From Paraspadella gotoi (lineage: Eukaryota; Animalia; Chaetognatha), in contig CM119265.1 in the NCBI GenBank assembly GCA_051294375.1, forward strand, positions 22,836,591-22,900,590: DNA of 64,000 bases, read 5' to 3'. Positions 3,105 to 60,604 of the stretch are shown in pieces. Each line of letters opens with the position of its first letter. Positions within the stretch are counted from its first letter, which is position 1. The notes under the pieces were generated by a model that did no database searches, was not told where the DNA came from, and saw only the letters and a list, made by a program, of their open reading frames with translations. Made by a program: the position numbers and the translations under genes.

Positions 3105-4121
3105 TCAATCATCCGACGATGTCTTGAGCGCGTCGCCCGAGTCTGCCGTCATATAACCGTTTGTCATCAGCGAGTCTCTTAAATTGGAGGCGTTCCGGAC
3201 TCCGGAAATCCTTCGACCGGCGACTCCCCCGAGCGCTTTCATCTTGATCCCGTTCTGCTCCAAATCTCCGTCCGCCCATTCGTAGCAGCCGTTCGAATGC
3301 GACCTTTCTTTTCCCCCCGACACCGCTTCGAACGACTCCAGCAGGTGGTCGCCCACGACGGCCGACCCGTTAGCCGCCAGCGTAACCGACGTTTGTCGCT
3401 GCGTCGTCGTCGATATCATGTGCTGCAGCCGCTGCCGCGCCACGACTGGTCGGCAGCGCAGACACCGCAGCGCGCGTTTAGCGGCGTCTCGTAGGCGGCG
3501 GCAGACTTTGAGAAAGTTGTCGTGAAAGAAGATTCGAAAGAGGATGTAGAACCAAGGATCGAGAATCTGATTGACGCACGCCAGTTTGACGAGAGAGAAA
3601 AACAGGTCGCCCCCGACCACGTTGGCGCCGGAGACTTGGTTGATGAAGACCGATACCATAAGCGGCGCCCACAACGAAGCGAAGGCGAATAGCGCCAACG
3701 TCAACGCCAGCATCTCGGCGTCGGCTTTGCGTTCGGCGGCGTCGCGTGATTTGACACCTTGCCGTTCTCGGAAGGAACCGGAGAATCTGTGAAGGGAGGC
3801 GTGGCTTTATTTAGTGAGAAGGGGGGAAAATTTCTTTTAACATGACCTGTAATTTCGGTTACTATTATAATTATTGTTACAACCTTCCATCCGGACAGGG
3901 ACTGGCAGACATACCTTTTGCAATAGACTAACGAAAAGAATAGCGAAGGCCCTGTAAGTGCAAGCTTTAAAATGACTCTAACACAGACTAGTTTAATACA
4001 ACTCTCATAGTAGCTTTCTCATAAATGAATTATTACTTAATTATTCTGTTAACCGTTAATCATTTAATGCTGTTCAATATGAACTGCTGTCGTTGAATTA
4101 AAGGAGCGCTCTCTTTTTAAC

Positions 4122-4152
<31 letters not shown>

Positions 4153-6518
4153 GTATCTAATAAATTGCATCAGACCATCCGGATTTTTTTGATTTCCGTA
4201 ATTTTAAGGGATGCCCGGATGTTTTTACTTTGCTCGTCTGCTTCGACAAACCTAAAATCCCGAACTCCCTTCCCGCCTCTCAGCGCCTACCCTAGGACCG
4301 ACCGTTTCCGGTATCGCCGCATCTGGCACATTGTCAGGATGGAGATGAAGTTCCCTACGGCGGTGACGCCGATGGAGAAGAGGCCGACCAATGAAAAGAC
4401 GTAAGGAAAAACGTGACGCGTCTCGTCGAATCTCATGTCGAAAAAGGACCACGTGTAGGGAAACATGACGACGTTGGCGCCGAGGGAAGGGACGCCGAGG
4501 GCGGGCAAACAGGCGATGGCGCAGGAGCAGGCGAAAGCGAGGATGATGCAGTGGAAGGCGTGGTGGGGGCGGACCAGGCGGTCGTAGAGAAAGGGTTTGC
4601 TGCGGTTGGGAGGAGTGTAATAGGGGAGATTGGGGGGCGAGAAGGAATAGTACGATATTTAATGACTCTATATTAGTAATGAGGCGAGTAAAATTCACAA
4701 TACACAGTATCTATTTAACTTTTTCAATAATTGTACAATAATTTTTGTATTTTTTTTAGGTTATTTTGTTATTAAAATTATATTAAAACACTTGCAATCT
4801 AATTTACATATTGTTGTCATTTAGGCCGAAAGTTGTATTTTACTTTTTTATTCAAATTAATGGATTAATGGATAATTTGGCACGAGCTCCATAAAAATAA
4901 AATCAAAAATTCAATTTTTATTATTGTGCAAATTTTACATGCTTTGAAAGCTGATAAGGACCAAAAAATAATGGAATTATTACTCGGTGGCATTTTACGT
5001 CTTATTCTTCAATAGAAATTTAGGGTTACTTTCCTCGTTATTAACGAAATAAAAAAAAATTCACAATTTTGAGAAATAAACACAAAAATTAATCCCGCAC
5101 ATTTATTGTAGTTTTCAAGAAATAAAAATTCAAACTAGTTTTCATTTCATTTTAAACTTAGTACTATTTTTTTAGACGAATTAATGTTTAAGGCTCGAAA
5201 CCACAATAAAGGAAATATTCAAAGCTCCTACCGAAGAGCGAGACATCTTTCTATCGCTATGACGGTTGCCATGAAGATCGTGTTGAATGCCGCCGTCAAC
5301 ATGTTGAAAGAGTAAAAGTGACACACGTTGGGTCCGCCGATCTCGGACCAGTTTCGCCCGTTGACGTAAAGACGCAGGACGAAGGGGCTGGTCAACATCT
5401 TGGGGACCGAGAAGTGGGGAAAGGGGGAAGTTAAGAGCGGAGAGATAGAGAGAGAGAGTGTGTGTGTGTGTGTGAGTGAGTGTGTTTTTAGGTCAAGAAA
5501 TACTCGGTTATTACGATACCCAGAATTCTTTTACCGGTATTGCATACACCCTTGTAATACAAACATACATTTTCATAATTAATGGAGATAATGGTCTACT
5601 GGCAAAAACCAATCAAGTTTTTCCAGATATTTCGGCTTAGGTTTCAAAATCGTCTTAGTTGGCGAAAGGGAAATTGGGGAAAAGTAAAACAAAATACAGG
5701 AGAGAGATTAAAAATAAAATAGAGAGAATCAAATTTATGCTAAAATTACTTATATATACCATTTCACCGTTATCTTCATTATTAAATTTAAATGAGCAGA
5801 TATTAATATTATTTTTTAACTTTGTGACAAATATTCTTGATATCACAAAGTTTTCAAATAATAATAAATGATTAGTAAGTAATTTATGAAAAAATGAAAC
5901 AATTTTAACATAAAGTTTTATTAAAAAGATTTCCGCGAGGATATCAATTTAATATTGAGGAGACAATGTTGTATGTCATAATCACAAATGCTTAAGTTCT
6001 AAGTTGACTGGTTATCCACCATCAGGTAAAACCGACTATCAATCACCCGTATTGATTTTTATCCTCTTCAGTAACCTGGATTCCTTTCAATCAATCACTC
6101 GCTGACAATGTTTTCGATTCTTCTGATTGCGCATTGCAAATCTCCCAGATTCCTTCTCATCGATCACTCGGCCTCAATCACCGCGTTCTTCACAATCAAT
6201 CACCCCTGTGTCAATCACTTCTTTTGATCACCCGACGTCAAATCACTCCCGATTCCCTTCCGCTCACCTGCCCGGCGAGATCGACGAGAATAAGAGCGAA
6301 GATGAGTCGATAGAAAATCGTCTGCCTCTGTCGTTTCCATGACGACGCGAGGATGACGATCGCGCAACAGTTGCCGATCAAACCCGAGACGAAGGACGGG
6401 AGGGCGAAGTCTGAGGCGGAGGCGGCGGCGACGAGGGCGGACTGGGCGGCGGAGAGATTGAGGGCGGGGAAGAGGCGGGGTGACGCGCGTCGCAGTCGGC
6501 GACGGGGAATGGAGACAT
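3105..6518 (-). CDS. Prostanoid receptor-like (EP2/EP4-like) class A GPCR, at least 4 coding exons; 5' end ambiguous
   Basis: Exons ~6518-6268, 5398-5232, 4599-4291, 3786-3105 join in phase. TM1 GLIGN, FYRLIFALILVDLAG, TM3 C...IERCLALRKPFLY, ECL2 FPYTWSFFD, DAEM, TM7 KLACVNQILDPWFYILFR are prostanoid-receptor signatures. The ATG at 6518 is 1 nt out of frame (see findings). Confidence 0.9.
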
Positions 6519-9344
6519 GGCGGCCAAGTGCGGGGGGGGGGGTGAGGTTAAGGGGGAAGAGGAGAGGTGAGAATGGTGAAGGTCGAGAGGAATTGGTAAG
6601 TTTTGCGTTAACGTTTCTTGTAAGTATTCGAAGTCGCGGGCGACAAAATATCAGGTGTACATTTGTACAATTGTACATTTATTTTCGAAAAAGGAGAGTT
6701 TTTTTTTTGATTGACGTAAATGCGTATATAGTACCTACATTTTTTAAAGATTTTTTATTTAGCTTTTTTCAAAATAATTTTTAGTCATTGTCATTTTCTT
6801 TTGCGAAGATGTGAATCGTGAAGGATTCAGCGAACGCCGAGTTCAGTTTCGAAAACTACATTTTTTTTGTGTGTTCGACATTCGAACAATTTGACAAATT
6901 GACAAATGGAAAATAAGAATCGCCTCCCCAGTTTGTTTTATTTGTTTTTTTCTTTTTTTTTTTCGAAAGCCGGATACGGAATTGAGATAAAGGTCGGTCC
7001 ACGTTCCACGAATCGCGTGTCCAAATTGTTGCCACTTTTTTTCTTGTGGCTCAAAAGTCACGAAAAAAAAAGTAGTTTGGTTTTTTTTTTTTTATCAAAC
7101 CTTTCACTCCGACTAATTCATGGAATTAAAATTTTTTGAAAAACTTTCAGATTCAAAGACGAGAAGAAAATCGTCACTTCTTTTTTTGGGGAAAAAAAAA
7201 AAAAGAGGAATTGACTCTTGGGGGTCGGGTGGCGAACCAAAAAAAGAGTAACGAATTTATCGCGTAAAAAAGANNNNNNNNNNTATCGCGTAAAAAAGAG
7301 TAACGAATTTATCGCGTCGTTTCGTGATTTAAGTCACTTCGTCTCCCCTTTCCTCGTTTGTCTTTTTATTTGTGTGTCATTGGCCGAAAACAATTTTTTT
7401 TTTTGGAGGGGGTTGTCTTTTGGAGAAATTCCTGAATCAATGAAAGAGTAATTGATAGTGAGAACGCCCGCTTTGGTTGTATTTTACGTGATTATAATTT
7501 ATATAGTTCAAAATAGTCTAGACGTCGTAACTATGTTTAAGAAAAAAAAAAAACCGTTGGCAAAATCAACAATGGTGCCAAAAGTTGTGAAAAAAATAAG
7601 TTATTTTATTTAGAAAAAATAAGATGAAAAATGAAAAGAAAAAAAAAACGAAATAAAGTTGAGAGAATAAAACTTAATTTTCACTCAAAAAAAAAAATCA
7701 GAAATAGAAATTTGATGTGCGATGTTCCGCTGTCACCGGTTTGGATGTCATTTTTCCTTCGAACAAACATCTATTGCCATTCGATCCGAAATCGAAAGAA
7801 ATTCAGTGACCCAATTTTTCCTCGCCCCGAAAACGAGTCTTTAAGTCGGCGAAGGTGTCAACAAAGATCTCTCATCGCTGACCCAAAAATTATGTCAAAA
7901 TGGAATCGAATCCCAACAAAATATTAAACTAATTTCGAACATGTATTTCTTTTCTCACTCTTGGGAACATGCGCTTTAGTCTAATTCGTATGAGCGTCAC
8001 TCATTGTTTGTAAATCAAAAAGCGATTTTAATTTAAGTTTGTTCGAATATCTTGGATTCAGTTTCAATCAAAATCCAATCAAGCTCCCATCGAAAGGAAG
8101 ATGTTTTTTTTTAGCCGACAAGGCCCCCGATATGAGAGCCCTGACGGCTCTCGAGGGCCTCCCGAGGGCCCCCCGAGGCTGGGGTGCGCTTCGCGATCGA
8201 TATTCGTGGGATCGAATGTCGAAAAAGTAATCATTAATCTTCCCAATTATTGACAATTTAATTTTTTAATTTAAAAATTACAAAAAGGTTTAATATGATT
8301 TTAAATGTTGAGAAATTATTAAAAAAGTTAAATTAAAGTTTAATTTTAAATTAGTGTTTTTTTTTTGCTCATGTAAAGACGACGGAATTTAAATTAATAC
8401 AAAATTTAATACAAAATGGTTGGGACAAAATATCTTTTTTTTTGTTGAAAAAGTGAAAAAAAAAAGTGGCTAAAGACGTTCGCAATCCGGACGCTTTCTC
8501 AAGCGCCCTCCTTTTATCGGGTTAAGTTTTCATCCTCCTCCTCCTCCTCCTCCTCCTCCTCCTCTTCCTTCTCCTCAGCATCTTCGTTCACCTCCTCTCA
8601 ACGTTTCATCTCTTTCATCTTCTTTCGTCGATTCTGATTTTGTCTTCCTCGTCTTCGTCTTCTCTTCCTCCTCTCCTCTCGCTCTCCTTCTTCCCTCTTT
8701 TAAATCCCTTTTCCTATCTCCCCAATGGGAGATTTTCTCCATTCTTTCCTAATCCCTCAATTTCTTTCTTCATATGTTCCCTCCTTTCTTACAATCTCCC
8801 TTTCCTGGCTTTATTCTCCTTCCCCACCCGAGCACCCTCTCATCCTCGACCGACCCGCCCTCCTCCGTTTCCATCGACGAATGACCTCGCAATTTCCGTC
8901 CGAATGCGGCGTCGTTTTGATTCCATCGACCGGCGTCGTTTTGGCTCCGTCGGCGGAGGAAATTCGAGGGCAAAACGGGACCGGAGTTAGAGGCGCTCGG
9001 TTTTTCATTGCTTGGGGCGCGGAAATTTGACCAGAGCTGATACTGCTGACATTGGCGCTGCGTGGGATACGGTTTAAAAGACACTTGCAGACCCTCAATA
9101 CCGGTTGCCGGTTGNNNNNNNNNNNNNNNNNAGAAAGATATAAAAGAAAAATTAGACAACGAAAGAAAACGAGAGATATAACTTAGCCAACCTTTTTAAC
9201 CAAGGCATAAAACCTTATTTTCTTTCATGGTGCCCGTGGAGCTCGGATATTTTTCCTCCCGTCCGTAGATTTTGAATTGTTTACATTCGTCCTCTAGCGG
9301 ATTTGTGGCTTCGCAAACTGACGGAGGTTCTGGTGGCGAATTTG

Positions 9345-17770: not shown

Positions 17771-18033
17771 TAATTAGCCACGTTTAATCGGCGCCGGAAA
17801 AAAGTAGCGACAAGACTTCATAGTTTCAACGCTTCCTCGTAAGAGGGAGGCGGAGCTTCAGAGTCGTCGGCACAGGAATAGACTGAAAAGAGAAAGGGAA
17901 TATTTTGTGATTGATTGATTGATTGATCGATTATTGAACGGCAGAGCCTCTGCCAGAGGGAAAGGTTAACTCAGTTTGGTACGTATAGATTAGATTTTTT
18001 TTTATAAATAAGTTTATAAGTTTATAAATAAGT

Positions 18034-20670
18034 TTAGAGCTGATGTCTTATTCCTGGCACGATTATATTCGCACCGATTTCGGGCGATTTCTTCTCAGGC
18101 ACGACGATATTCCAACCAACGCCGATGGGATGCAGTGCACTGCTGTTGTCGACTGACTTCTCTTCCTCTTTCCCTTTTGTTTCGCTCGAATTGCACAGAG
18201 TATTTTTTAAGGAATCGGCTGAAAAAAAAAAAGAACACAAAAAAATCTAAAAATTCGGCAGCTGCCATTGATGATTTTTTTTTTTTTTGATTTTCCATCG
18301 GAAAAATAAGGAAAAAAAATAATAAAGAAGAAAGAAAAGAATCCGGGTCTTTCATTTGATCAGTTGTTGTTGTTGTTGTTGTTGTTTTGACCGCTACAAT
18401 TTAGTATTTTAATTTGGCATGGCGGAAAATGAAAAGGAAAAAAAATAATATATAAACCCCAAAATTTATGGGAGGGGGGTCAACAGGTCTGAACGGGGGG
18501 GGCGGGGTGGGGGAGGGAATTAACCATTTTCATTGTCCAACTCTCATTTCGCCGCAGAGACATAGAATAATTTTGATAAACAATCAATTTAAATTCGACT
18601 TCATATCAACTCACCGAGAGCTATTTCAGATCCTTTTTCCCGGTCGCTAGGCAACCCTAAATCCCTCGGGCTGAACTTTGACGCTAAATCCGGTTTCAAA
18701 ATGGCGGAGGATTCAACCGACTTCAAATTGCGGATTATTTCCGGTTCCGTCGTTGGATCTGGAATGGAATTTGTGGGGGGGGGGCGGTGGCATGATTGAA
18801 AAGATGTTTCAAAGATAAAAAAAATTGAAAGTAAAATTGCAGGGGCGTAATGAAAAATTTAGTGAGCATAACTCCAACAAGATCACTATATCAGTATCAT
18901 AATAAAGGGGTAAATGTAACAAATAGTTACAGAAATTCTTTTTATTCTTCGTATATCCGGAGTTAACCATTATTTCTACATCATGTATTACCACAATCTA
19001 CACATCCAAATTATCCAAAGCCGATATTTCTATTTTGTTCGCCCTTTTCGCACAATCGAATTTTAAATAAAAAAAAACCAAAACAAAAAAACAAAAAAAA
19101 AAACAAAAAAAAACAAAACCCCAAAAACACGGAAATGTCCTCAATTCTCAATCCTCATTGGTCGATTGTTGTGGGAGAATCTTCCACCAATCGTATTCAA
19201 ATAAACTCGAGAGATTTCCTTATTTGGATCTTTGCCTCTCGTTGAAGATATTAGATATTAGATATTAGGACGTGCGGCTTGAGGCTAGAACCTATAGCGC
19301 GTAAATTGAATAAGCTCATTCATTCAGCGCAGTTGCTCAAAAAAAAAAAAAAAAATAAAAAAAATAAATAAAAGAACAACCATTTCGCTTTCAACAGTGC
19401 CCAATTAAATCACCGTGGCTTTTATTTTGCTACACTGTTTTTACAGCCGAATTGCAAATTACCCCTAAATCGCCACTGTGGCTACTTTAAAAAAGTGACC
19501 AGAGACACAGAAAAAAAAAGGGAGAAAAAATAACAAAGGTCTCACCTTCTTTGAGGTCATCGCCCCTGGAGGACGTCGAGTCACTAACTTCCTTGAACGT
19601 CGTCTTCGTAATCGTCGTCGTCGTCGTCTTTTTCGTCGTCGTCGCCTCCGCCTCCGACGCGAAGGTGGAAACGCCAGGGGGCAGCGGGAGCAGCGGCGGA
19701 GCGGAAGGAACGAGCGGGAGCGGCGGGGTGGGTTCGCCGAGAGATGAGGTAAGGTGCGGACTGGCCTGGGGTTTCCTCCCGCCTTTCAGGAGAGGGTAAT
19801 GTCCTGAAAAGAAAAAAAATTTGTGGCGAATCGTAGTAAAATTCGAATCCTGAAAGATCGGGTCAATATTTACAATTCATCTTTGTTGACGTTATTTGAC
19901 CAGTCTTTTCACAGTTCTAGACGCTTTCTCATGTCTTTCTTTGAGCTGAAAACATCGTAACTCGTTATTCGATCATAATCGTTTCACAGGAAAAGATCGG
20001 CCGTCAGGAACCGTTTTTTTTTTTACGGATTCCAAGGATTTTTGTCACGAATTTATTGTACTGTGGATGCTGCTATAGTACGATATTTATTTAGACATTT
20101 GTTTACTTTTACTGGAATAAACTTATTCGTCATTTATGTTTCTATGAGATTTAGAAATGTTTGCTCCATGTAAAATCCAGTTCTTCCGAACGCGAGACTC
20201 TCGCACGTTTAGAAAATAATAAAACTTTTCTACCCATCCAGTTTAACATGGGCCAACTTAGCTTAGCTTAACTGAGAGCTGAGAGCTAAGTACTCGCTTA
20301 CCAGCCGTGGGTGCCTACTTTAATCCCCTCACGGTCACGCTGATTTAGTGCGATAGTTCTCGTGCAAGTACTTCAGTGACATTGGGTTGTCACAGCAGGT
20401 CCAAAGCCCCGATCGCCAGCAGTTGGAAGAATCCTCACTCCCCGACCATCACACACGACCCCCTTGTTCCCATACCTCACCATTTTTTGGTTGGAATCGA
20501 ATTTAATGAATTCTTTGTTTTCCGCGGATCTTAAATGTCTTCTTTAAAACGTCTCAATTCGGGAGATTTGAAAGCGTCTGTCTATTCCTCTGCCTCTATG
20601 TCAGTATGTCACTGTGTTTGTCAGTCAGTGTGTCTGCTTGTTTTTCTGTCTGTCTCCGTAAGTTTCCGTT

Positions 20671-20758
<88 letters not shown>

Positions 20759-22053
20759 GCTCTTCTTCTCCCACTCCCCCCTCGTAACCTCCAACCCCCC
20801 TTCCTCATCTCTCCCACTGTCAAAGTGTCGGCGATATTCGCCAGGTCAACTTTTGACAGATCTGCAGTTGCAGCCTTCGTTGGGGCCGCAGCGTCGAGAG
20901 GGCAGCAGGAGCAGTTGAGGACGCGGCCGCGGTTGCAGTAGAAAAGCCGTTCGGGCTGCGGGGAGGGGGGGGGCCGGGGAAGGTGGGGGGGGGAAGAAAA
21001 AGATTTAAAGTGGAACGAATCGATCGGCGCTCAAGATATTTTTTTTGGCGTTGGTCTCAGGTGATGTAGGAATTAAATTAAGGGGGGGAACCGATAACGA
21101 AGATTAACCTAGACCATTGAGGAACATACGAAACAACTGGACGTACTTTGTCTAACGTCTAGTTGGACTCGCAATTCGGATTGAGAAGCAATATTCGATC
21201 GTTTGACGATAAGCGTCCAACGGATTGCAATCTCCCATTCACTCGGTTATTTCCGGTTCGTTTTCGCGCTTCCGCGGAAATTCTTTTGTCTCATCCATCT
21301 CGATCACCCCATTTTCCTTTTTTTTCCCTTTGTTGTTTCTTTTCTTTTCTTCGTTTTTCTTTCTCTTGGCCTTTGTATATTCCTTACACTATTTCCTTTT
21401 CTTTTTTTAAATCTTTTTTTCCTCTTCTTTTGTCCATTTTTTGGACCCCAACATTCGTCCTCTTCTCTCCATTGTCGCAGAATCTCGCCTCATTTGCTCA
21501 CCGAGTGTTTCTTTTCTTTTTTCTATTGTTTCCTTTCCTCCCTTTTATTTCCTCCCTTTCCTCCCTTTCCTTTTCTACCTTTCCCTTCCCTTTCTATTCC
21601 TCTCTTTCCTTTCCTCCCTTTCTTCCATTTCCTCCCTTTCCTATCTTTCCTCCATTTCCTTTCCTCCCTTTCTTCCCTTTCCTCCCTTTGCTATCTTTCC
21701 TCCCTTTCTTTTTTATATTGTTTCCTTTCCTCCCTTTTTTTCCTCTCTTTCCTCCCTTTCCTTTTCTCCATTTCCCTTTCCTTTCCTTTCCTTTCCTCCC
21801 TTTCCTATCTTTCCTCCATTTCCTTTCCTACCTTTCTTCCCTTCCCTTTCCTCCCTTACCTCCCTTTTCTTTCCTCCCTTTTCTTCCCTCCCTTTCCTTT
21901 TCTACCGACGCAGTTAATCTTCACTTTTTCTCCTCATTTCTCTTCGGTTTCTTACTTTTTTTCGGCCCGCTAAACCGATTCCCTTCTGTTTTTCCATTCG
22001 CTCATGAAAAAAAAAAAAGAGTCGAACGATAAAAGAATCGCGAGAGAGAGACG

Positions 22054-22117
<64 letters not shown>

Positions 22118-25100
22118 AAGAGAGAGAGAGAGAAACGACGAAGAATTAAAGTTAATTATGGTTTGTTTTTAACTGAAATACCTTTTTTTTCCTCAAAAAA
22201 GCACTCGTCGGTAAAAAAAAAAAATCCGTGTTTAATTAAAAGCAAATTAGGCTTTTGAGATATATCAAGTATAATTGTCTCGCTCGTAATTAAATGGCGT
22301 CGTCTTGAAATTTATGAACGAAATTATTACATACCAGTAAAAACCTTTTAGATATTTCAGCGAGCGATTTTCCCATTTTTAGAGAGTGACTCAAATTAGC
22401 GAGCAATACACGTGTTTTCAGAGTGCGAGCTTACCTTTTTTTAGCCTAAAAAATTATTGAGCGCTTCAAATTAGCGAGCTCCGCAGACACGCCCTTTCAT
22501 CGACCGGATTACTGTTTTTATCAAGCGACTCAATTTAGCAGAGCAAGTCACTTTTTTTTCAGCGAGAGAGCATTCCTTTTTTAGCGAGCGAGCTTACCTT
22601 TTTTAGCGAGCGAGCTTTCCTTTTTTAGCGAGCGAGCTTAGCTTTTTTAGCGAGCGAGCTTAGCTTTTTTAGCGAGCGAGCTTACCTTTTTTAGCGAGCG
22701 AGCTTACCTTTTTTAGCGAGCGAGCTTACCTTTTTTAAGCGAGCGAGCTTACCTTTTTTAGCGAGCGCCCCCTCGGAATTTCTGACGAATCCGACGCCAA
22801 ATTCTAGATCCAATATTCGACAGGCTTCGCAGTTGCAGCCTTTCAATGGACCGCATATCCCATCGCAACATTTGCAGTTGAGAACGGTCTCACCGCAATG
22901 GAATCTGGAGAAAGTGGAGACAATCGAGTCACAGACATTTCTTCATACAACTAATAGGAAAATTAATCTATTCATTGAATACTACTTATACTGGTCTCCG
23001 CTGGCAATTATTATCTCCCACTCCCATGAATAGACATATGACATTGTGCCTCCAGACTTTGGACAGGGTGTGATGATTTAAAACTTACATTCTTCTTACT
23101 GGAATCGTTATTAATGAAAAATGCAATAAAAGTAAGTGGATTCGTTGGGTTCGTCGTCGTCGTAGTTTTTTCCTCATTTCGCATCAGAAGCCATTCCCTC
23201 ATTCCGGTCAAGTGTCTGACATCTTGACCTTATAAGTTATGAATGTGATCATAATGCACCTTTCACACGGTGAATTTATTTAGTCTCTGCTTTTCTTTAA
23301 AAGGACAAAAAAGGAATTGAAGGTTTGGTTGTTAATGTCATGAATTCAAATTTCATAACAGCTAAATAAAAACTACGTAGTATAAACAAACGAATCACCG
23401 AATGACAGAATGACAGAATTGCAGAATGAAAATCCTTCGCTTTGTGATCGGTTGGTGAAAGAGGTCATTGACGAGGTAACGTAGAAATGGTTAGTAAAGA
23501 ACGGGAGCTGAGGTGAAAAGGCGAGGCGCTGGAAACAACAATACGAGGTCAATGATGACGGCGACGACAGCCGAACTTTGATGACGATACGACGACGACG
23601 ACGACGACGACATTTCAGGATGACGGCGACGACGATGACGACAATAACGATACGGACGACGATACACCCGTGCCGATAACGACATTTTTACGTTTATTGG
23701 AGATGACAAAACGAGAATAACGACGACAACCGACCGACAACCAGAGTCAATTGACTCGGAAAACAAATTTCGGGCAACGAAGCGACGAATCTGAAGCGAA
23801 TCGCAATTTTGAGCTTCAAAGGGCAGAAAGTCGATATCTCGATTTGGCCGACGACGACGACGACGACGAGTCACGCAGACCGAACGACCTACTTTTTTTT
23901 TGACCAGCTCCAGTCCCAGGCTTCCATGGAGAACTATCCGTCCTTTCTCTCACTCAATTTGCTCTCGTTTCTCTCGGCCAGTTGGCGGTCATTTCTTTTG
24001 CCCAAAAAGACCTCGTTTCTTTGGGCTAGTTGGCGGTCATTTCTTTTTGTCCAATTAGCCAGCGTTTCTTTGGCTCAGTTTGTAAAAGTTTTCTTCTACT
24101 CAAAAATACCTCGTTTTTTTTAAATTTGTGCCCAAATAAAATTCTTTAGCTTTCGTTTCACCGGGATATCGTGTGGTTACGCAATTAGCATTTATTTCTT
24201 ATATTTCCCAATCAGAGTTCGTGCTTTTTCAAATGGAACCCGAATTGTCTTTCGGTGGTTTTTTGGGGGAGCAATTTAGTGCCTTTACGTACTAGCTACT
24301 AGGTCACCCAACATTTATGACTTATGAGCCATTTTAATTAATTGCTACCTGTTTTTATTCCGCTATTCGGCGAATATAAAATTAAAAAATGGCTTAGAAT
24401 TAGATTCATTTCTCTCACTCGATTTCCTCCGTCATCGAATGCGTTTCTCGTTCCATCGGTCATTCCTCTCCTTTTCGTCTCCTCACACTAGTTTAAAAAA
24501 AAAACAAACAGAAAAAAATTAAAGAAAAAAAAGTTTTTCTGTTCTTTTTTTTTAACAAATATTTTATTTATCTTTTCCGCTTGAGCTCTCACCCCCCCGC
24601 TCCCGCCCCCTCCTTAAGAAAACCCCATCTCAAACATTTCCAATCGACCCCAGGGTCGTTTACCCAAAGAAAAAGTAGTATCAGTTTGGCAAGGACTTCC
24701 AGGGCGAGCCATGTTGGCAGAGAACTTAAGCGGGGGGGGGGGTGGAAGACGTAGAGGGGTCGGTGGGGTAAACCTTTCCCCCCACCTTTTCCTCGTTCGA
24801 GAGAGTGGGGCTGAATTTAAATCCTCCGGATCATCGGCAGACGTCGCAGCGTTGGGAGGGGGTGTTGGACAAATTTCCCCCTTCAAAAAAAAGTTCGTAG
24901 ACCAGACTCGAATTTTAATTACGACATTGACACGAAAAGAGAATTATAATTACACAATTGTATTAAATGAGATAGTTTTATAGTGATGTAATACGATAGT
25001 ATAATTGAATATTAAGACTTTAGTGGGATGAAGACAACTCCGGTAACTTTCTTAACCCCAACAACTTGGCTTCGGTCGTCGCTCCGCTTCCAAGGGCAGG

Positions 25101-27058
25101 GAGAGCCTGGGGAGCTAGGAGGTTAGGGTTGAACCCGGTACCATAGAGGTTATGAGGCAACGGCTTTACTCAATGAGCCACAGGCATGAGTCCATTAGCT
25201 AGCGCTGTCGTGCTAGAATTTGTCCGCGATCCGTACCTCATCGTGAAGTAACTCCTGACGGCGAAATTCCCGTTGCAATTCATCTTCCGGTGACCAGATG
25301 AATCTTCCACGGTCACGGGTTCGATTCCGTTTTGAGACACGGAGTAAAGCGGAGGTTCGACGCCGCAACCGTCCACCAATCTATGGAAGGGGGGGGGGAA
25401 AGCAAGCACTTCAAATCGATGGGTCGATGGTTCAAATAAGTTGATTATAAATAAATAAATAACCCAAAAATAGATTTAAGTCTAATAATTAAATAATGAT
25501 CGAATCAAACAATAAACTAATAAAACAATTAGTCATTTTAATATTCAGGCAGTACGCAAAATTTAAAACCAATCAAGTGCTCACCTGTCCAACTCTCTCA
25601 GACTTTGGGTAAGTCGATCGTCGGGACTCAATCTCTGACGCAGTTGAGTTGGGGACAGAGAATCAAGGGAGGCCGCGGAAGATTTGTTGCCTGCGATCGA
25701 GCGAAGAGTCAATCGATCAAGTAAGTTTTACTTACCAAATGAAAATGAATTCATTTGTCACCAGAGATGAAAACGTAACGAGACGAAATGGAAGAAAATT
25801 GACGAGTCACGTTTGAATAAACTCTTTTTAATTTTTTCGTGGCGACTTTTTTTACCTGCAAAGTAACAGATGATGCTGATGACGACGATCATAATAAAAA
25901 TGCCGACGATAACGATGACGACGATGTGTTCTCTGGCGAAATAAGGATGGAATTCATTATTTTTTTTTACATAAGCTGGATTAATCTTTATTATTTGAAA
26001 TACGTCTAACAAGGAATCAACTATGAATACAACTAAAAAGAAAGAAAGGAATAAAAACCGAACGAAAAAAAAAATAAAGAAAGAGCTATGTACTTATAAA
26101 GAAATATATATTATCAGAGTCAGAGATATTGATCATTTATCTTTCCTCACGTTCTGAGCCCCTTATCATCCGAATCGTAGTCGTATTCCAAGTATTCGAC
26201 TTCTCCCGTGTAATAAACCGATCGGTACCCGTTGTATCTGTAGCGATAATTGCCACTGATGAACGTCCGTCCACCTGGAGAAAAAAAAGAAGAAATTACG
26301 TAAGTTAAACTAAGAAAACAAACGAACATATGACAACAACAAACAAACAGCGAAACCTTGAATCAAATAGAGACAATTTTTATGTATAATAATGACGAAG
26401 TATTTAATATAGAAGGGATATTAATAATTAAAATCTTTACCTCCCAAAGAAGTGTATCTGGCATTGCTGAATCTCGCCGCGTCCTTTCCCTCGCCTCCTT
26501 CCGGTTCCGCTGAAACAAAGAAACCAGAATTCAGTTTTATTTGTTTACCGAGCGTCGGAGATTCCATCACAGGATCTAGGAGATGGAATCTTCTGACGAG
26601 GAACTATTTGGGGATTTTGTCCAAGACGAATTGTTTTGACAGCTCGTGATGCAGTAGACGAAAACCTCACGGGCGACCTTGGGCTTGGAATCTAAAACGG
26701 CAGTGTTTCTGGCCAAAAAAATTTACCGTTTGGCACAAATAAGTCTGAAGGAATAATGTAATTCGATTTGATTTAAGGAGTATTTATTTATTGAAAAATT
26801 CATCAATTGTAAATTAAAGCCTGCTTTCGGTTATATTCTTTTTTTGGACGTTTTATATTATAAATTATATTATAAATATATATAGAAAATATATATATAA
26901 ATTATAAATTATAAATTATAACTATATCTTATTCAGTTATTGAGTTTAACAAACGAACAGATAGAATTATGCTTCAAATATCTTTAATTACCGGCGAGAA
27001 GACGGAGGCAACCGATCAGGAGGAAGAGGCCCAACGAAACAACTCTGGAAAACTCCAT
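18034..27058 (-). CDS. Uncharacterised type I membrane protein (~441 aa): signal peptide, short Tyr-rich ectodomain, one TM, PPxY, two tandem Cys-rich modules, Pro-rich PSAP region
   Basis: Exons 27058-26992 (MEFSRVVSLGLFLLIGCLRLLA), 26509-26441, 26274-26151, 25932-25856 (TM IVVIVIVGIFIMIVVISIICYFA), 25690-25585, 25380-25237, 22904-22753, 20955-20818 (frameshifted as assembled), 19803-19546, 18218-18034. All introns GT-AG with compatible phases. Confidence 0.8.
20229..20315 (-). pseudogene. Degenerate 5S rRNA-derived fragment (5S pseudogene or SINE3-type head) in intron 8 of the membrane-protein gene
   Basis: Minus strand TCTCAGTTAAGCTAAGCTAAGTTGGCCCATGTTAAACTGGATGGGTAGA aligns by eye to the 5S internal control region TCTCGGAAGCTAAGCAGGGTCGGGCCTGGTTAGTACTTGGATGGGAGA. 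Box A and box C are retained. Confidence 0.6.
21310..21960. repeat. Long polypyrimidine low-complexity tract (degenerate TTTCCTCCC units)
   Basis: About 650 nt almost entirely C/T, inside intron 7. Generates spurious F/P/L/S ORFs. Confidence 0.9.
22553..22767 (-). repeat. 22-bp minisatellite (~9-10 units) derived from the exon 7/intron 7 junction
   Basis: Minus-strand unit GCTCGCTAAAAAAG|GTAAGCTC. The first unit overlaps the end of coding exon 22904-22753. Confidence 0.92.
25120..25185 (-). mobile_element. tRNA-derived SINE head / tRNA(Met)-like pseudogene, copy 1
   Basis: Minus strand GCCTGTGGCTCATTGAGTAAAGC (A box) ... CTCATAA (CAT anticodon-loop-like) ... GGGTTCAACCC (B box). Anticodon and acceptor stems do not pair. 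Related copy at 51.5 kb. Confidence 0.6.
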
Positions 27059-27269
27059 ATTTCCGTTTTCTTTGTTTTTATTTTGTTTTATTTTCGTTTT
27101 ATCGTTTTACTTTTTTTTCGGAGTTTTCTGTCCTTATCTCCTTTTCGCTTTTGTTTTATTTCCGTTTTTTTAAATCAACAGTTTTCGTCGGAGTGAAAGG
27201 CAGTCGTCGTCATTGTCGTCGTCGTCGTCGTCGTTTCGGTCGTTGTCATTCGGTCGATTAAAACCGGTT

Positions 27270-34793
<7,524 letters not shown>

Positions 34794-45873: not shown

Positions 45874-48050
45874 TCAGCCGCGTTTGGTCATGATCTTCAA
45901 ATACTGCAACGCGTTGTGGGCGGCGTTAGCATGGGCATCTTCCTTGGAAGACCCGAGCCCGTGACACACAGCCACCGGCATCGTCGACAACTGGACGATG
46001 CATTGCTCCTGCCCGGCGATGGACACTTCGGGAAGGTCTACGTAAGTCACCTTAAGAAAAGAGGGTGACCGTTAGAAACAATGTCATCGAGAGATTGAAG
46101 AAATGTAACGACGTCAGTGGGTAGAGTCAAACCTCGAAATTGTGTTCGTCGGCGATCTGACGCAAAATGTCGACAAAGTTGAGCCCGGGCGCGTTGAGGC
46201 TGCTGCCGTGCAGAGTCGACAGCGCTTTTCCGGGTTTGCTCTTGATGTTCTTGAAGAATTGCGTCACCGCCTTTCCGGTTTGGTTGTTAAGCGTCTGGAT
46301 CTTTTTTCCGTCCTGAAATTTTTGAGAGAAGGGGGAAAGAAGAAGTCTGAACGAAAGATGTCTAAATTGTTTAAGGAATGGTGAAGTAACTGAATCTAGT
46401 AGGTCAAACCCACAAGAGTAAATTTGGATTGATCGCCGACTTCACCTTGAGCATCGCCAGGTACGACGCTTCCACGGCAGAGTTGCCCTCGAAGTCTTCT
46501 CCTCCGTCCTGCTCCTCCAGCTTGGCCGCCTCAGATTCCAATTTCTTTAACATGTTGTACGCCGCCGCTCTGTGAGAAATAGGACTCGGGATGAGGCCCT
46601 CGCTAAAAAACTTTGGGTGTACTACGCAAAAGCTGGGGTATCGTTTGAAAAAAGAATCAGGAACCAAAAATGTATCAAGTTGCTCACTGGGGCGTCAGGT
46701 TCACTCCCTCAACCAGTCTGCAAAAATAAGTAACCAAAAAAAAAAAAGTTAACTAATAATAAATAACTTAACTTGTATCCTTAAAAATTGAAAGGAATTA
46801 GGGAATTTAGCGTGTTGCATTTACATAGACGAAATCATAAGTTAAATACCGTTTCGCAGTCTTTTTCGATTTTCCGATTCCCGTCTCTTTGAGTTTCCCC
46901 AAATTCACGATGCAGACGAACTCCCGACAGTGAGGGGGACCTGCTGCGGAAGGGTGGAAAGGGGGATGGGGGGGGGGTTCCGCGCGCGAGAAGGGGGCGG
47001 GAGGACAAGAGACTGTAAACGATTTAACTCTCAATGAGCGATGTGTCTTATAGGCGGACGAGGATCGGCCGGGCGCTGGACAGACCTTGCTCCGAAACGA
47101 ACTCGTAGATGGGAGGGCGGAGCAGCTTCTTCTGCGTGAACTCTTGAAGGCCGCCGACGGGGTTGCCAGGGACATTGTCGTCGTCGGCCGAGTCGGGGAT
47201 CTCGATCTTGGAGCACGCCTTGGCGAAGAACTGCGGGGAGAGGGAGAGATGGGACGTTTAGTCAGAATTCCGAGCTAATGTAATGTCAATCATCAACAAT
47301 CATCAAACTAGGTATTAAAAGACCGTGAAGCTTAACTAGACTTGCTCTTAACTTAAGGCGCCAGCTGTCGGGAGATGTCTCGCACCCCGGGAATCACACA
47401 AGCTTCCCCGTTGCCATAACAACCCCTTCATTGGTCTTATATGATCTCCACAATCGCAACCTCAATGGCTGAACTTGAATTTAACCGCTAAACTGATCTC
47501 AACATCACTTCTCAAATCCCGGGTCCCAGGTTGCACCCATCCCACCAACCTGTGACATATCCTGGCCGGCGGCGGAGGCGACGACCTCCCTGATCTTCTC
47601 CAGCGCCTCCTGAGCCGCGCAGTGCTTGGCCTTCTTCTTGGAAGGGCCCTTCCCCGTGGCCACGATCTCGCCGACGACGACGCGGTAGACGAAGATGGGC
47701 TCGTGGACGGCGCCTTCGTTGGCGATCAGATCGTAGGTAGGCGTCATCCCACGCTGAGCACAGAACTCCTGCAGCACCGAGATCGGCGTCTTCGTCGGCA
47801 TCGAATGCGACATCACGGCCGCCGTCGCAGCCGCCGAAGCGGCAGCTCCGGCCGTGGACGGCGCTCCTGGGGCGCCTGCGATGGGCACGAGGGGGGAGGG
47901 GGGATTAGATGAGTTGATCGGACAAGAAGAGCGCGCATTCTTCGGTTCACTCTCGTTGAGGAAAAAATAGAGGCGCTTACCAGTGGGAACTACGCCGGGA
48001 ACGGTCGGGACCGCGTGAACGGCGACGCCATTGGCCGCGGTCTGCGTCAT
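45874..48050 (-). CDS. loqs: Loquacious/TARBP2/PRKRA-family Dicer cofactor with three dsRBDs (~370 aa; may extend further 5')
   Basis: Exons 48050-47981, 47875-47550, 47230-47086, 46940-46850, 46569-46446, 46312-46133, 46050-45874 join in phase. dsRBD1 KTPISVLQE..HEPIF..GPSKKKAKH; dsRBD2 NPVGGLQE..PPHCREF..GKSKKTAKR; dsRBD3 ..QLSTMPVAVCHG..AAHNALQYLKIM. Upstream acceptor at 48077 and a candidate exon ~48233-48273. Confidence 0.95.
47363..47500 (-). ncRNA. Candidate intronic box H/ACA snoRNA
   Basis: Sense within the 319-nt loqs intron: hairpin, ANANNA (ATATAA/AGACCA at 47442-47432), hairpin, ACA (47368-47366); ~138 nt. Stems are GU-rich and imperfect; no target identified. Confidence 0.3.
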
Positions 48051-49582
48051 GACGTCGTTGGGAGTGGAGATGGAGACTGCGGATATTTCAAGTTATATTT
48101 AGAAGTTTCTTTTTTAGTATATAAAACGAAAATTGTTTCTTAGTTGTCGTTTCCGAGCTTTAGTAAATAACGATAAATGTATTTTTTTCGACAGTTTCCT
48201 TTTTTTAAGTAGCTTCCTTTCTTTCGCTCAACCAAACGGAACACGTTGCGGCCTGGCAAGAGGAGCAGAGATCCTGGAGAAAATAACAATATTAAAATAA
48301 AATTGCAACAAGAATATAAAAAAATATGTTTGGTTTCACAACAGAAAAAGAGCAACGATAACGGGAAGAAGGGAACCTTATGTTAATGTCAAATTAGATG
48401 GACGTGCAAAGAGAAAAAAATCTGGAATGCAGAATGCAGAATCGAGCATAAATTTATTATAATGAAAACGGAAAAAGGACTGCAGAGTCCGCTGCTTGTT
48501 CCACTCTGGAAAAAAATGAACAAATGGCTAACTAATTTTCGGCCCTGATTTTTATAAATATAATGAATAAATTCAACTGAATTCGTTCTATTAAAATTAA
48601 TAAAATAAAAATTAACATAGTGCATGAAGTAAAAAAAATTCGTTAAATCATTGATTTCCGGTGATTAATTTGGGCGTTCAAAATAGCAATTTTTTGACGG
48701 TGCGAAACCACGGGTCCCTTTTAAGGAGAACGAGAGTATTTTTTTACGCAAAAACCTGACCCTAACTTCGCGATGCTGTTGTAAGATTATAACAGAGAAG
48801 TCGCTCGATGGTTTGGCAGGTCCAATGGTCCACGTCTTGATCTCCTCGGTCCACTATTTCTCCGAGGCTATTATAAGCAGCTACATACTTTAAAACTAAT
48901 TGAAGGTGCAGTTATTGAACGCTAAAGCTTAAGCTCCGAGTGACATTGGAGGGGAGGATTATTTGCAATAACACTAGGACCTCATCAAACGTCCGTCCTT
49001 ATTTCATCTCTTTTATTTATTTATTTTTTTTTACCTTTTAAAATTTAATCTACCGCATTTCGCCTCTGAGTCGGTATTAAACTTAAGAAAATTAACTTAA
49101 TCTCTCACAATCTCTCACAATCTCTCCGACCGAAATCTCGACACTTCCATTCCGTGAACCCGCAGCGTCACGTTAAAGGCGTTTCAAGGTTTAAAATTCG
49201 TCCAACTGTTGAACGAATGATGGAAAAGTTTCCTGTTTTCAAAAAAAAGGAAATTTTTGAGTCTCGTTGTCATAAAGGAAAATGATTCGGAAATTTCGAT
49301 GCTAATCTTGACCCGAGGCGGATCGGGTGCGACAGTGACAGAACTTTTCAATACCGCCGGTTAAAAAATCAACCAAAAAGAATTTAGGGCAAAATGTACC
49401 CCAATCTTTCACTCGTTCGAATTTGAAAAAGTTTTTTTTTTCAAAACTCGGAAACGTGGATTAGAAATAAGTTTTTTTTCTTTTTTTTTTCTAAAAATAT
49501 CTTTGTAAATGGAAGGACAAAGATAAATAGAAAAGGGAGCAAGGGTAGAAACGAAACGGAGAGAAAGAGAGAGAGAAAGAAG

Positions 49583-55507: not shown

Positions 55508-56179
55508 TCCCTCCCCTTAACAGGGATAAAACTGGATTCATGCTACGTCGTTATGTTATGTCATGTCACGCTTGGCTTCCCAACTTCCTAATTTTTTGTA
55601 AAATAAGCGAACGTAAAAAAAAAAAAAGGAAAAAGAGAAAAAGAATAAAATCCTTTTTTTTTCAAAATATACCGTCGCGCAACTCAGACAACACACCTTG
55701 AAAAAAAAAAGCGAAAAAAAGTTAACAGATCCATTCCACAACCAGTGTGCCGGAAAATCCACAACTTGAGAGGCTAAAATCAACATTCTGTTCACGCTCC
55801 TCCAAGCTGTGCATTTTCTGGGAGCCTGGGACCAAAATTGTCTTCGAGATCTGAACGGAATCGATCGATCGATCGATCAAGCGTCGAGGATCGAATCAAT
55901 CAATTATTTCGTGACAAACTATTTTCTTTCTAATTCGTCATTGTATTAAATATATCTATTGTATTTAAGAGTATTCAATACGTTTGTATTTTATTCTCGT
56001 ATGCTTTCACGGTTATTATCTATTTATTTCTTTTGTTTATGATCATTATTGTTCCTTTCAAATTTGTTCCTTCCTCGGATCGTTTTAATTAAAATCTCTT
56101 TATATAATAGCAGCTGGTGGCAAAAGGCTCGCTTTTCAAGTCGGGGAAAAAAAAGGATGAGTGAAATTGAAAAAAAAAC

Positions 56180-56752
56180 CTATAAGTGTAGTTAGTATTA
56201 ATTTCGAATTCCAATTAATCCGCAAATTATAATCATTTACGAATGTATTAAAATTATATAAATTTCATATTTTGATAATTTACACAAAAAGAGGAATAAG
56301 GCGTAATTAAAAATACAAGAGCTATCTAAGGCTACTTATTGGACGAAATTAGATAGATAAAAACTTGTCATATAAGTAACAAGGCTGTCAAAGCGATTCT
56401 TAATTTATGGAGGTGGTGAGTTGTGAATTTGGTTAATTTGTGAGGAATGTCGCTCTGTTTCTCTTCCCAGAAGAAGAGAGGGAGAGAGAGAGAGAGACGA
56501 GAGAGAGATCGAAGAAAGAGAGAGAGAGAAGAAACAGAGAGGAAGGAAGAAGACCGCCGAGGGTCCTTCCCAAAAGATTCCCATTTTGTTTATTTTAAAA
56601 GAAGAGAATAAAAAAATACAAAAAAAGATTGGTCTTTAACCCTTAAATCGTCATATTTTTCGAACTGATCCTTGGTCTCCCCTCAGTAAAAAACCATAAT
56701 GGTTAGAAATGGGCTCGTACAACACTTGGCGTTCCATTGAGACATGGGCCAA

Positions 56753-56793
<41 letters not shown>

Positions 56794-58032
56794 AAGAGAG
56801 AGACGAAAGAGAGAAGAGAGAGAGAGAGAAGAAGAGAGAGAGAGAGGATGAATGTGAATAACGTAGACAAGATTAATTATTACTTGGCGGATGTGCGTAA
56901 ACTTACCCGACTGGTCGCGCGGGAAAGAAAGAAAGAAAAAAGAAAGAAAGGAAAAAAAGAAAAAAGGAAAAGAAAGAAAAAAGAAGAACAAAAGAAAGAT
57001 ATACAGAAAGAGAAACTGGCCGACGAGGAAATTGAAGCTTACCGTTCTTTCGTAAAATGGGATCTGACTACCTGTCTACTAATAGTTTTTGTCGTTGTCG
57101 AATTCCATCGTCTATTGTTCTTCGACGAAAAACCAAAAACTAAAAAAAAAAGAAAAAAAAAATTCTGGTCGACGAATTCGATCAAAATCTCGAACCAGTT
57201 TTTCCTCTATCAAAAATCGGTGCGACTTTTCTAAAGTTTTCGGTGAGCCGGGATCGGAGACGGGATCGGATGGTGCGTCTAGAGGATCGGGGACCGGGAT
57301 CGGGACCGGGGAGATCGAGAGATCTGAAATCGGAGAGAACCGCGATTGCGATCGAGGATCGGTCAGATTGATGGGGTCAGTATGTGTCGCGTGGAAATTT
57401 AAGGAGAAGTGGAAAGAAGGAAGGGTGTTGCGTTGAAGCAGAAGGAGGTTGCGTGAAGAAATCGAAGTGTGTGGTAAAAAGAAAAAAGTGTTGAGGAAAA
57501 AAGCTAAACTATTCGGGAGCAGGAAGATGGGAGCGTTGGTGTTGGAGTGGTTGCGCTGTTGGGTTGTTGGGTTGGTTGGGTGGTAAGAAGCAAAAGATTT
57601 GAAGCGGAGGGAACAAGAATGTGACCTCATGTTTTAGTTGGAGGATAGGAGTGAGAGAGTAGGAAATGAGGGAGTGAGAGCGTGAGAGTGAGGAATGAGG
57701 AGTAGTGAGAGAGTGAAGCAGTTGAGAGTTGAGAGTGAGGAGAGTGAGAATGAGAGAGTGGAATGAGGATGAAGAGAGTGATGAGTCGAGGGAGTGAGGA
57801 ATTGACGAGAGTGAGGGAGTGAGAGATGGGGAATGAGGAGTGGAGAGATGAGGAGTGAGGTTCTCCATCACTAAAGGTATCGAAAATCGATTTTTTTCAA
57901 TATTCCTTTCGGGGAAAAAAAAAACATAACATGTGAGAAGAACAAGAAAAAAATAAAGGAATGGCTGTGTTTTAAATATTTTGTCGACAAGACGAGCGTT
58001 TAGAAATTTCTTCCAAACTCTTTTCACGTTTT

Positions 58033-58100
<68 letters not shown>

Positions 58101-58195
58101 CTCTCTATCTCTCTCTTCTCTCTATCCTCTCTCTCTCTCCTATCCTTTCCCAAAAATGCCTTACCTGCGTNNNNNNNNNNNNNNNNNNNNNNNNN

Positions 58196-58230
<35 letters not shown>

Positions 58231-59075
58231 AAAACCGTGAAAAGAGTTTGGAAGAAATTCTAAACCTCGTCTGTCCGACTAAAACTATTTAAAAACACAG
58301 CATTCCCCCTTTTATTTTTTTCCTTGTTCTTCTCACTGTTTATTTTTTTTTCTTCCCCGAAAGAATATTGAAAAAAATCGACTTTTCGATTACCTTTAGT
58401 GACGGAGAACCCTCACTCCCTCACTCTCCCACTCCCTCATTCCCCACTCTCTCACTCCCTCACTCTCTCATTCCCTCACTCCCTCACTCCCTATAAGTGT
58501 AGTTAGTTATTAATTTCGAAATCAATTTAATCCGCAGAGATTATTAATCATTTACGAATGTATTAAAAAATTTATTATAAATTTCATATTTTTGATAAAT
58601 TTACATCAAAAAGGAATAAGGCGTAATTAAAAATACAAGAGCTATTAGGTACTTATTGGACGAAATTAGATAGATAAATTGTCATATAAGTAACAACTTC
58701 AAAGGATTCTTAATTTATGGAGGTGGTGAGTTTGTGAATTTGTTAATTTGTGGAAGGAATGGTCGGCTCTGTTCTCTTCCCAGAGAGAAGAGAGGAGAGA
58801 GAGATGAGAGAGACGAGAGAGAGAGTGAAGAGATAGAGAGAGAGAGAAGAAACAGAGAGAAGGAAGAGACCGGAGCCGAGGGTCCCAAAAAGATTCCCAT
58901 TTTGTTTATTTTCAAAGCGAAGAGAATAAAAAAATTACAAAAAAAGATTTTGGATCTTTAACCCTTAAATCGTCATATTTTTTCGAACTGTCCTTTGGTC
59001 TCCCCCTCAGAAAAAACCATATGGTTAAGAAATGGCTCGTACAACACTTGGCGATTCCATTGGAGACATGGGCCA

Positions 59076-59119
<44 letters not shown>

Positions 59120-60604
59120 GAGAGAGACGAGAAGAGAGAAGAGAGAGGAGAGAGAAGAGAGAGAGAGAGATGAATGTGAATAACGGTAGAGCCAAGATTA
59201 GATTATTTACTTTGGCGGATGTTGCGTGAAACTTACCGACTGCGTCGCTCATGCGGGAAAGAAAGAAAGAAAAAAGAAAGAAAGGAAAAAAAGAAAAAAG
59301 GAAAAGAAAGAAAAAAGAAGAACAAAAGAAAGATATACAGAAAGAGAAACTGGCCGACGAGAAATTGACTTACCGTCTTTCGTCAAATGGATCTGACTTA
59401 CCTGTCTACTAATAGTTTTTGTCGTTGTCGTTCCATCGTCTTTGTTCTTCGACGAAAACAAAACTAAAAAAAAAAGAAAAAAATTCTCGGTCGAACGAAT
59501 TCGATCAAAATCTCGAACGCAGTTTTTCTCTCTATCAAAATTATCGTGCGACTTTTCTAAAGTTTTCGGGTGAGCCCGGGATTCGGAGATCGGGGATCGG
59601 GATGCGTGGTCTAGAGGATCGGGGACCGGGAATCGGGCGACCGGGGAATCGAGAGATCGGAAATCGGAGAGAACCGGCGATTGGATCGAGGATCGGAGCA
59701 TTGATGGTTGTCAGTAGTGTCGCGTGGAAATTTAAAGGGAGAAGTGGAAAGAAGGAAGGGGTGTTGCGTTGAAGCAGAAGGAGGTTTGCGTGAAAGAAAT
59801 CGAAGTGTGTGGCTTAAATAGAAAAAAGTGTTGCAGGAAAAAAGCTAAACTATTCGGGGAGGCAGGAAGATGGGAGCGTGTGGGTGTTGGAGTGGTTGCG
59901 CTGGTTGGGGTTGTTGGGGTGGTTGGGTGGTAAGAAGCAAAAGATTTGAAGCGGAGGGAACAAGAATGTGACCTCAGTTTTAGGTTTGGGGAGGGAGTAG
60001 GAGTTGAAGAGTATGGGAATGAGGAGTTGACGAGCGTGAGAGTGAGGAATTGAGAGCAGTGAGAGAGTGAAGCAGTTAGAGAGTGGAGAGTGCAGGAGAG
60101 TGAGAATGAGAGAGTGGGAATGAGGGAGGTGAAGAGAGTGATGAGTCNNNNNNNNNNNNNNNNNNNNNNNNNTCTTTTTTTGTATTTTTTTATTCTCTTC
60201 CTTTCAAAATAACAAAATGGGAATCTTTTGGGACCCTCGGCTCCGGTCTCTCTCTCTCTCTCTCTCACTCTCTCCTCTCTCTCTCTCATCTCTCTCTCTC
60301 TCTGCCTCGTCTCTCTGGGAAGAGAACCAGAGCCGACCATTCTTCACAAATTAACAAATTCACAAACTCACCACCTCCATAAATTAAGAATCCTTTGAAG
60401 TTGTTACTTAATGACAAATTTATCTACTAATTTCGTCCAATAAGTACCTAATAGCTTCTTGTATTTTTAATTACGCTTATTCCTTTTTGATGTAAATTTA
60501 TCAAAAATATGAAATTTATAATAAACTTTTTAATACATTCGTAAATGATTAATAATCTCTGCGGATTAAATTGATTTCGAAATTTAATACTAACTACACT
60601 TATA
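56180..60604. repeat. Complex direct plus inverted duplication around two N-gaps, probably misassembly
   Basis: 56180-~57790 is repeated at 58491-60147. 58225-58490 is the reverse complement of ~57790-58035. 60173-60604 is the reverse complement of the ctataagtgtagttag start segment. Copies differ by many 1-nt indels. Confidence 0.85.

Follow-up and report, generated by a model that had tools for sequence, protein, structure and literature searches.

Does a single gene in a 64,000-nucleotide stretch of the chaetognath Paraspadella gotoi (assembly GCA_051294375.1, contig CM119265.1, positions 22,836,591 to 22,900,590; the whole stretch is called the window below) encode a membrane protein that combines cysteine-rich modules with motifs for protein sorting, and what would such a protein do? 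An earlier note on this DNA had proposed a type I membrane protein with two modules, a PPxY motif and a PSAP motif. The gene predicted here lies on the minus strand and has 12 exons, from an ATG at 27058 to a stop in 17882-17818, encoding 497 amino acids. Its product is probably a type I membrane sorting adaptor that recruits Nedd4-family ligases and the endosomal sorting complex ESCRT-I, sending itself and a client to lysosomes.

In exons 1-7 every border is GT-AG, the phases chain and 246 amino acids are read free of stops, with in-frame stops present upstream of the ATG. The translation of these exons has exactly two hydrophobic stretches, at residues ~3-25 (peak 2.04) and ~89-111 (peak 3.64), which by hydropathy supports the proposed signal peptide, ectodomain of ~65 amino acids and single transmembrane helix. 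The ten phase-compatible exons originally described are borne out for these seven; the total is 12, and exon 8 is out of frame as assembled. The stop at 18034, formerly given as the gene end, is reached when exon 11 is not spliced but read through, and a homologue shows a further exon at 17882-17818. With ~500 amino acids the predicted protein is not the small receptor or adaptor that had been suggested.

That homologue, P0151, was the one match among four candidates when exon 7 was searched for among longer proteins; it has 595 amino acids and is 84% identical over the query. It is encoded by one uninterrupted open reading frame on a contig of 2148 bases, with a hydrophobic signal-like start, an ectodomain, a transmembrane helix, PPLY, two cysteine modules, PSAP and a terminal PPSY in that order. 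The transmembrane exons and the cysteine exons, which might have come from different genes, are thus parts of one. The 12-exon model and P0151 share 293 of 497 residues. Because P0151 is ~100 amino acids longer, the window model may miss an exon.

Exon 1 (26992..27058) carries the start codon and the predicted signal peptide, assigned by hydropathy alone; it shares 3 of 22 residues with P0151, yet P0151 is hydrophobic there too. The ectodomain begins in the Gly-rich exon 2 (26441..26509; GT-AG, phase 1-1; 9/23 identical) and continues in the conserved, Tyr-rich and Cys-free exon 3 (26151..26274; 33/41; tblastn E 5e-19). Exon 4 (25856..25932; 22/26) encodes the predicted transmembrane helix, which in the structure model of P0151 has a predicted local distance difference test score (pLDDT) of 83-86, and exon 5 (25585..25690; GT-AG, phase 1-2; 20/35) a juxtamembrane linker; identity is higher in the ectodomain exon and the helix than in this linker. 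PPLY (25344-25355) and the first half of module 1 are found in exon 6 (25237..25380; 34/48), the core of module 1 and the first residues of module 2 in exon 7 (22753..22904; 43/51), and the core of module 2 in exon 8 (20817..20955). The Pro-rich exon 9 (19546..19803) has PSAP (19697-19708) in an island of 9/9 identity. A low-complexity tail follows in a probable exon 10 (18615..18758; GT-AG, phase 1-1), with a weak match to P0151 (36%, E 0.018). Exon 11 (18075..18218) contains a conserved IGVGWNI (18106-18126) and has a weak, uncertain donor, and exon 12 (17818..17882) has the terminal PPSYEEAL (17827-17850; PPSY at 17839-17850) and the stop, and shares 14 of 21 residues with the C-terminus of P0151. 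The model is weakest at exon 10 and at the exon 11 donor. The coordinates of PPLY and PSAP in the earlier note are exact, and module 1 and the linker are as quoted there.

As assembled, exon 8 (from 20955) splices out of frame with a stop after residue 282, and the module 2 sequence first reported had been read across several frames. Five missing bases were predicted in this exon by a frameshift-aware alignment to P0151. The only short-read contig that covers it has a depth of 21 and comes from run X1, which may be the source sample. It restores the frame with single extra bases at 20816, 20846, 20858 and 20899 and two more in a loose end near 20946 and 20952; these six are the five predicted by the alignment and one at the donor. 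Each stands beside an identical base, and the gaps in exon 8 are therefore assembly errors. Read with the bases of this contig, the exon is 45/48 identical to P0151. Three other runs (X9, X5 and X6) gave no contigs over exon 8 and are uninformative.

A decaying gene, or an artefact joining unrelated exons, would account for the frameshift in the assembly and for the expansion of a 22-base repeat over the exon 7 donor. This is very improbable given the restored frame, the single open reading frame of P0151 and the identity of exon 8, and there are other noisy duplicated blocks in the window. The repeat (9.6 copies, 22555-22767) begins over the exon 7 donor and repeats that donor; used as donor, the copy at 22708 would give 15 extra in-frame residues inside module 2. 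The duplicated blocks (27266-30871 versus 30953-34793, and also 56179-60606) have 84-97% identity with many gaps and are likely uncollapsed noisy assembly.

The range of the architecture is narrow as known. In a further homologue search only P0151 itself was found among 2033 candidates, and another with 205 candidates gave P0161, an equivalent of exon 6 from a third source. None of 32 candidates was confirmed in a metagenome scan with P0151, and its ectodomain and transmembrane part had no match in 60 metagenome loci found with an alignment of HERC2 flanks. Residues 1-300 of P0151 gave one lead at 0.75 in the ESM Atlas, a nematode cluster without Pfam assignment, and the module pair gave no usable match there. 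A hydrophobic window was present in 8 of 150 listed relatives of the module. Seven of these were inspected. Four turned out to be exon frames of HERC2 type that continue into an intron, the others were P0023, P0036 and P0092, and PPxY was found in none of the seven.

The strong conservation of the ectodomain (33/41) and the still better conservation of the modules (43/51 and 45/48) would also suit a protein that is itself the receptor or cargo. A ligand would then bind to the ectodomain, signalling would fall to the modules, and the PY and PSAP motifs would set no more than the turnover of the protein itself. This is unlikely: the protein has no catalytic domain, and its three sorting-type motifs resemble those of known adaptors. 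The ectodomain is short (~65 amino acids), lacks cysteines between signal peptide and helix in both the model and P0151, matches no Pfam family above the cut-off, and in P0151 has no confident fold in a single-sequence model (overall pLDDT 40; a weak test, uninformative beyond helices).

The tail speaks for a sorting adaptor. After the modules 84 of 202 residues (42%) are identical between model and P0151, and windows with at least 8/9 identity occur solely around PSAP, the terminal PPSY and IGVGWNI, the last without any difference despite the divergence of the tail. None of 20000 shuffled versions of the cytoplasmic part of the model had two PPxY motifs together with PSAP; for P0151 the share was 0.045%. 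The terminal PPSY, which lies outside the span described earlier and was missed there, is an extended PY motif in both proteins, with a chance of 0.03-0.04% in shuffles. The coupling to Nedd4 and ESCRT proposed earlier is strengthened by this conservation and by the second PY motif, and remains inferred.

The eight-cysteine module was described as one of giant HECT ligases, which is too narrow. The search with exon 7 gave 178 cluster representatives at E<=0.001. Domain counts were taken on 150 listed ones, of which 26 have a RING match, seven more Sina/TRAF, two PARP, two a kinase and one a weak ubiquitin-like match, with no Pfam HECT match among the 150. A brittle star has five or six copies of the module behind a RING, two proteins have it next to PARP domains, and a rotifer protein ends with it (P0001, P0152, P0078, P0107 and P0037); the preceding part of the rotifer protein may be HECT-like, and it has no Pfam match. 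No Pfam family covers the module, and just three stray matches, below cut-off or without a passing stretch, were seen (P0006, P0119 and P0152). When 153 proteins were searched with a profile, 152 contained the module, with 319 copies in all, 297 of them complete and 116 of these with all eight cysteines. Both modules of P0151 keep all eight (57 and 54 bits), and the comparison of A1 with A2 gave a probability of 99.6.

Four of the cysteines are kept in 97-99% of the 297 complete modules, a near-invariance that is partly built in because these four were demanded by the pattern from which the profile was started. The remaining cysteines tend to be lost together (both present in 196 of 297, neither in 82, discordant in 19), a statistic inflated by related sequences. 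Both limits weigh against what this pattern suggests, namely two metal sites. The module is likely zinc-binding, judging from the cysteine pattern and the cytosolic proteins that carry it. AlphaFold2 modelled the module pair of P0151 from 82 sequences with pLDDT 89.8 and a predicted template modelling score of 0.60, each module having short strands, a cysteine loop and a helix. Foldseek gave no matches for the pair at E<=0.001 in pdb and none in viral structures, which does not show a new fold. In a wide fold search with VIA the best Z was 2.9 (root mean square deviation 3.4, 46 aligned residues, mostly the last helix), and sequence searches of the PDB gave nothing below E 0.2.

The part of the earlier claim that concerns HERC2 held. 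Flanks that look HERC2-type are present in 24 of the 153 module proteins; name look-ups of 30 proteins gave no HERC2. The 60 metagenome loci mentioned above were found in a scan with these flanks. In one of them, L018, tblastn connects the module exon to a frame of 3372 amino acids with RCC1, Cyt-b5, MIB_HERC2, Cul7, ZZ and APC10 domains, and a HECT domain would lie beyond the DNA covered. This set is the HERC2 architecture of PMC3673628 (section 13), where the module is not among the domains listed. The module shares one frame with an RCC1-like domain in two other loci (L006 and L009). No HECTD4 sequence turned up in any search; the module in HECTD4 itself was not tested.

Introns link module 2 to these genes. 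Module and flank occur together in 46 loci. An intron interrupts 42 of these, which represent 31 distinct exons, and all 42 have a phase-1 acceptor at the position of window intron 7, in module 2, with a matching donor in four of six loci examined. The donor of exon 7 falls at the same phase-1 point. The modules were likely gained by exon shuffling of an animal HERC2-type module: an intron-bearing copy, from HERC2 or a derivative, would have been duplicated and shuffled into a membrane gene with PY motifs. HERC2 may have been the direct donor, and several findings count against this. A gene that is not HERC2 and has no flank (L055, 853-1370) has a pair of module exons, and both begin where the intron lies in HERC2. 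The intron of module 1 lies at a different position and in phase 2. A tree was made from the 168 modules, out of 297, that have at least 40 columns and both marker cysteines of the second site; in it both window modules fall among the HERC2-type ones only at support 80-86, with no starred branch. The closest matches of module 2 mix HERC2-type and RING-type proteins (5/19), and the enrichment of HERC2-type proteins among matches of module 1 is biased because module 1 was the query.

As a sorting adaptor, the protein would bind a membrane client through its conserved ectodomain and transmembrane helix. PPLY and the terminal PPSY would bind the WW domains of a Nedd4-family ligase, which would ubiquitinate adaptor and client, and PSAP would bind TSG101 of ESCRT-I. 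Each module would bind two zinc ions and offer a recognition surface for a partner common to proteins of the ubiquitin system. More speculatively, and with considerable doubt, the module could be an unnamed two-zinc new fold by which ubiquitin ligases (HERC2, RING and TRAF-like), along with some PARPs and kinases, recognise partners throughout eukaryotes; one animal lineage would have grafted two copies onto a Comm-like membrane adaptor, and the lysosomal sorting of a surface protein would be gated by the signal that the HERC2 N-terminus reads.

The sorting adaptor has to be weighed against several points. Every binding step, the localisation and the zinc content are inferred, and the client is hypothetical. 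The protein itself lacks a ligase catalytic domain, and non-ligase proteins, too, have WW domains to which PPxY binds. The full architecture is known from two sources, so that conservation is judged on two complete sequences together with a single exon from a third source. P0151 is a putative transcript, since its contig of 2148 bases has no introns. The splice junctions in the window rest on DNA signals and alignment to the homologue, not on RNA of the organism.

Two other roles for the same motifs are quite improbable. In the first, the protein would be a membrane scaffold for non-ligase WW or SH3 proteins of the Hippo-pathway type, PSAP being part of a polyproline SH3 site; PSAP does lie inside a conserved Pro-rich run, and PPxY binds several classes of WW domains. 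The partner domains of the module elsewhere are mostly ubiquitin ligase domains, and the terminal motif fits the extended type of Comm and PRRG4 as given in the available part of PMC5578492. The second, equally improbable, would be outward vesicle budding from the plasma membrane in the style of ARRDC1 or viral late domains, with the modules loading cargo. PSAP and PPxY form a late-domain pair (PMC2958808, in part), whereas known type I PY adaptors act in endosomal and lysosomal sorting according to the accessible text of PMC5578492 and PMC12101832.

Elsewhere in the window, a SCAMP-family gene at 1714-2526 on the plus strand has its Pfam domain in one frame, and on the minus strand a double-stranded RNA binding motif (Pfam dsrm) at 47505-48092 forms the first exon of a multi-exon gene. 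Also on the minus strand, 23-274 is presumably the start of a Rab6-like GTPase, and 3105-6547, with several exons, what we take to be a prostanoid-receptor-like G protein-coupled receptor.

No description of the module or the architecture was found in the literature searched, which included few subscription papers and left aside supplements, whose domain tables might be relevant. A search of papers for the motif strings gave 0 hits, and the available part of PMC6692442 makes no mention of the module. A membrane protein has here likely received exons of the ubiquitin system by shuffling, and the protein offers a small, tractable setting in which to learn the role of the module, and thereby what the invertebrate HERC2 N-terminus and many RING proteins recognise. 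That N-terminus has one copy of the module, with a phase-1 intron that it shares with module 2. HERC2 itself is giant and soluble, whereas a scan of P0151 found none of its RLD, Cyt-b5, MIB-HERC2, Cul7, ZZ, APC10 and HECT domains.

The membrane proteins that resemble the window protein do so by motif. Comm recruits Nedd4 via PY motifs and Robo1 is degraded, as stated in the accessible part of PMC12101832, and the extended PY motif is critical for Comm in that of PMC5578492. The latter source also describes what Commissureless and PRRG4 share with the window protein: a single pass, a short Cys-poor ectodomain, several PY motifs and a terminal extended motif of the PSY-acid-acid-x-hydrophobic type. 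Unlike Comm and two PRRGs, which have no signal start as far as the text available goes, the window protein has a signal-like start, and unlike them it carries PSAP and two folded cysteine modules. P0151 has no Pfam match to a Gla or Comm-like ectodomain up to E 0.5, no Comm or PRRG was matched in homologue searches of limited sensitivity, and no similarity was found outside the motif. The Shisa-like/STMC6 proteins (Shisa, WBP1, VOPP1, TMEM92 and CYYR1) have, in the partial descriptions at hand, a signal peptide, one transmembrane helix and a Pro-rich tail with PY motifs; the window protein lacks their six-Cys ectodomain, its cysteines all being in the predicted cytoplasmic part. In LITAF and CDIP1, PPxY and PSAP stand beside a cysteine zinc domain at the membrane, and for TSG101 and Nedd4-family ligases LITAF employs its PSAP and PPXY motifs (PMC5095921, in part). 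LITAF is monotopic, has both termini in the cytosol and contains one zinc; no Pfam match to its zinc domain with the hydrophobic insert was obtained, and in the window protein the hydrophobic stretch lies apart from the cysteine modules. The window protein would likely work like Comm, PRRG and LITAF, yet it fails their domain tests. The PY-motif membrane adaptors in the partly available literature surveyed have unstructured tails, whereas here two predicted folded modules stand between the motifs.

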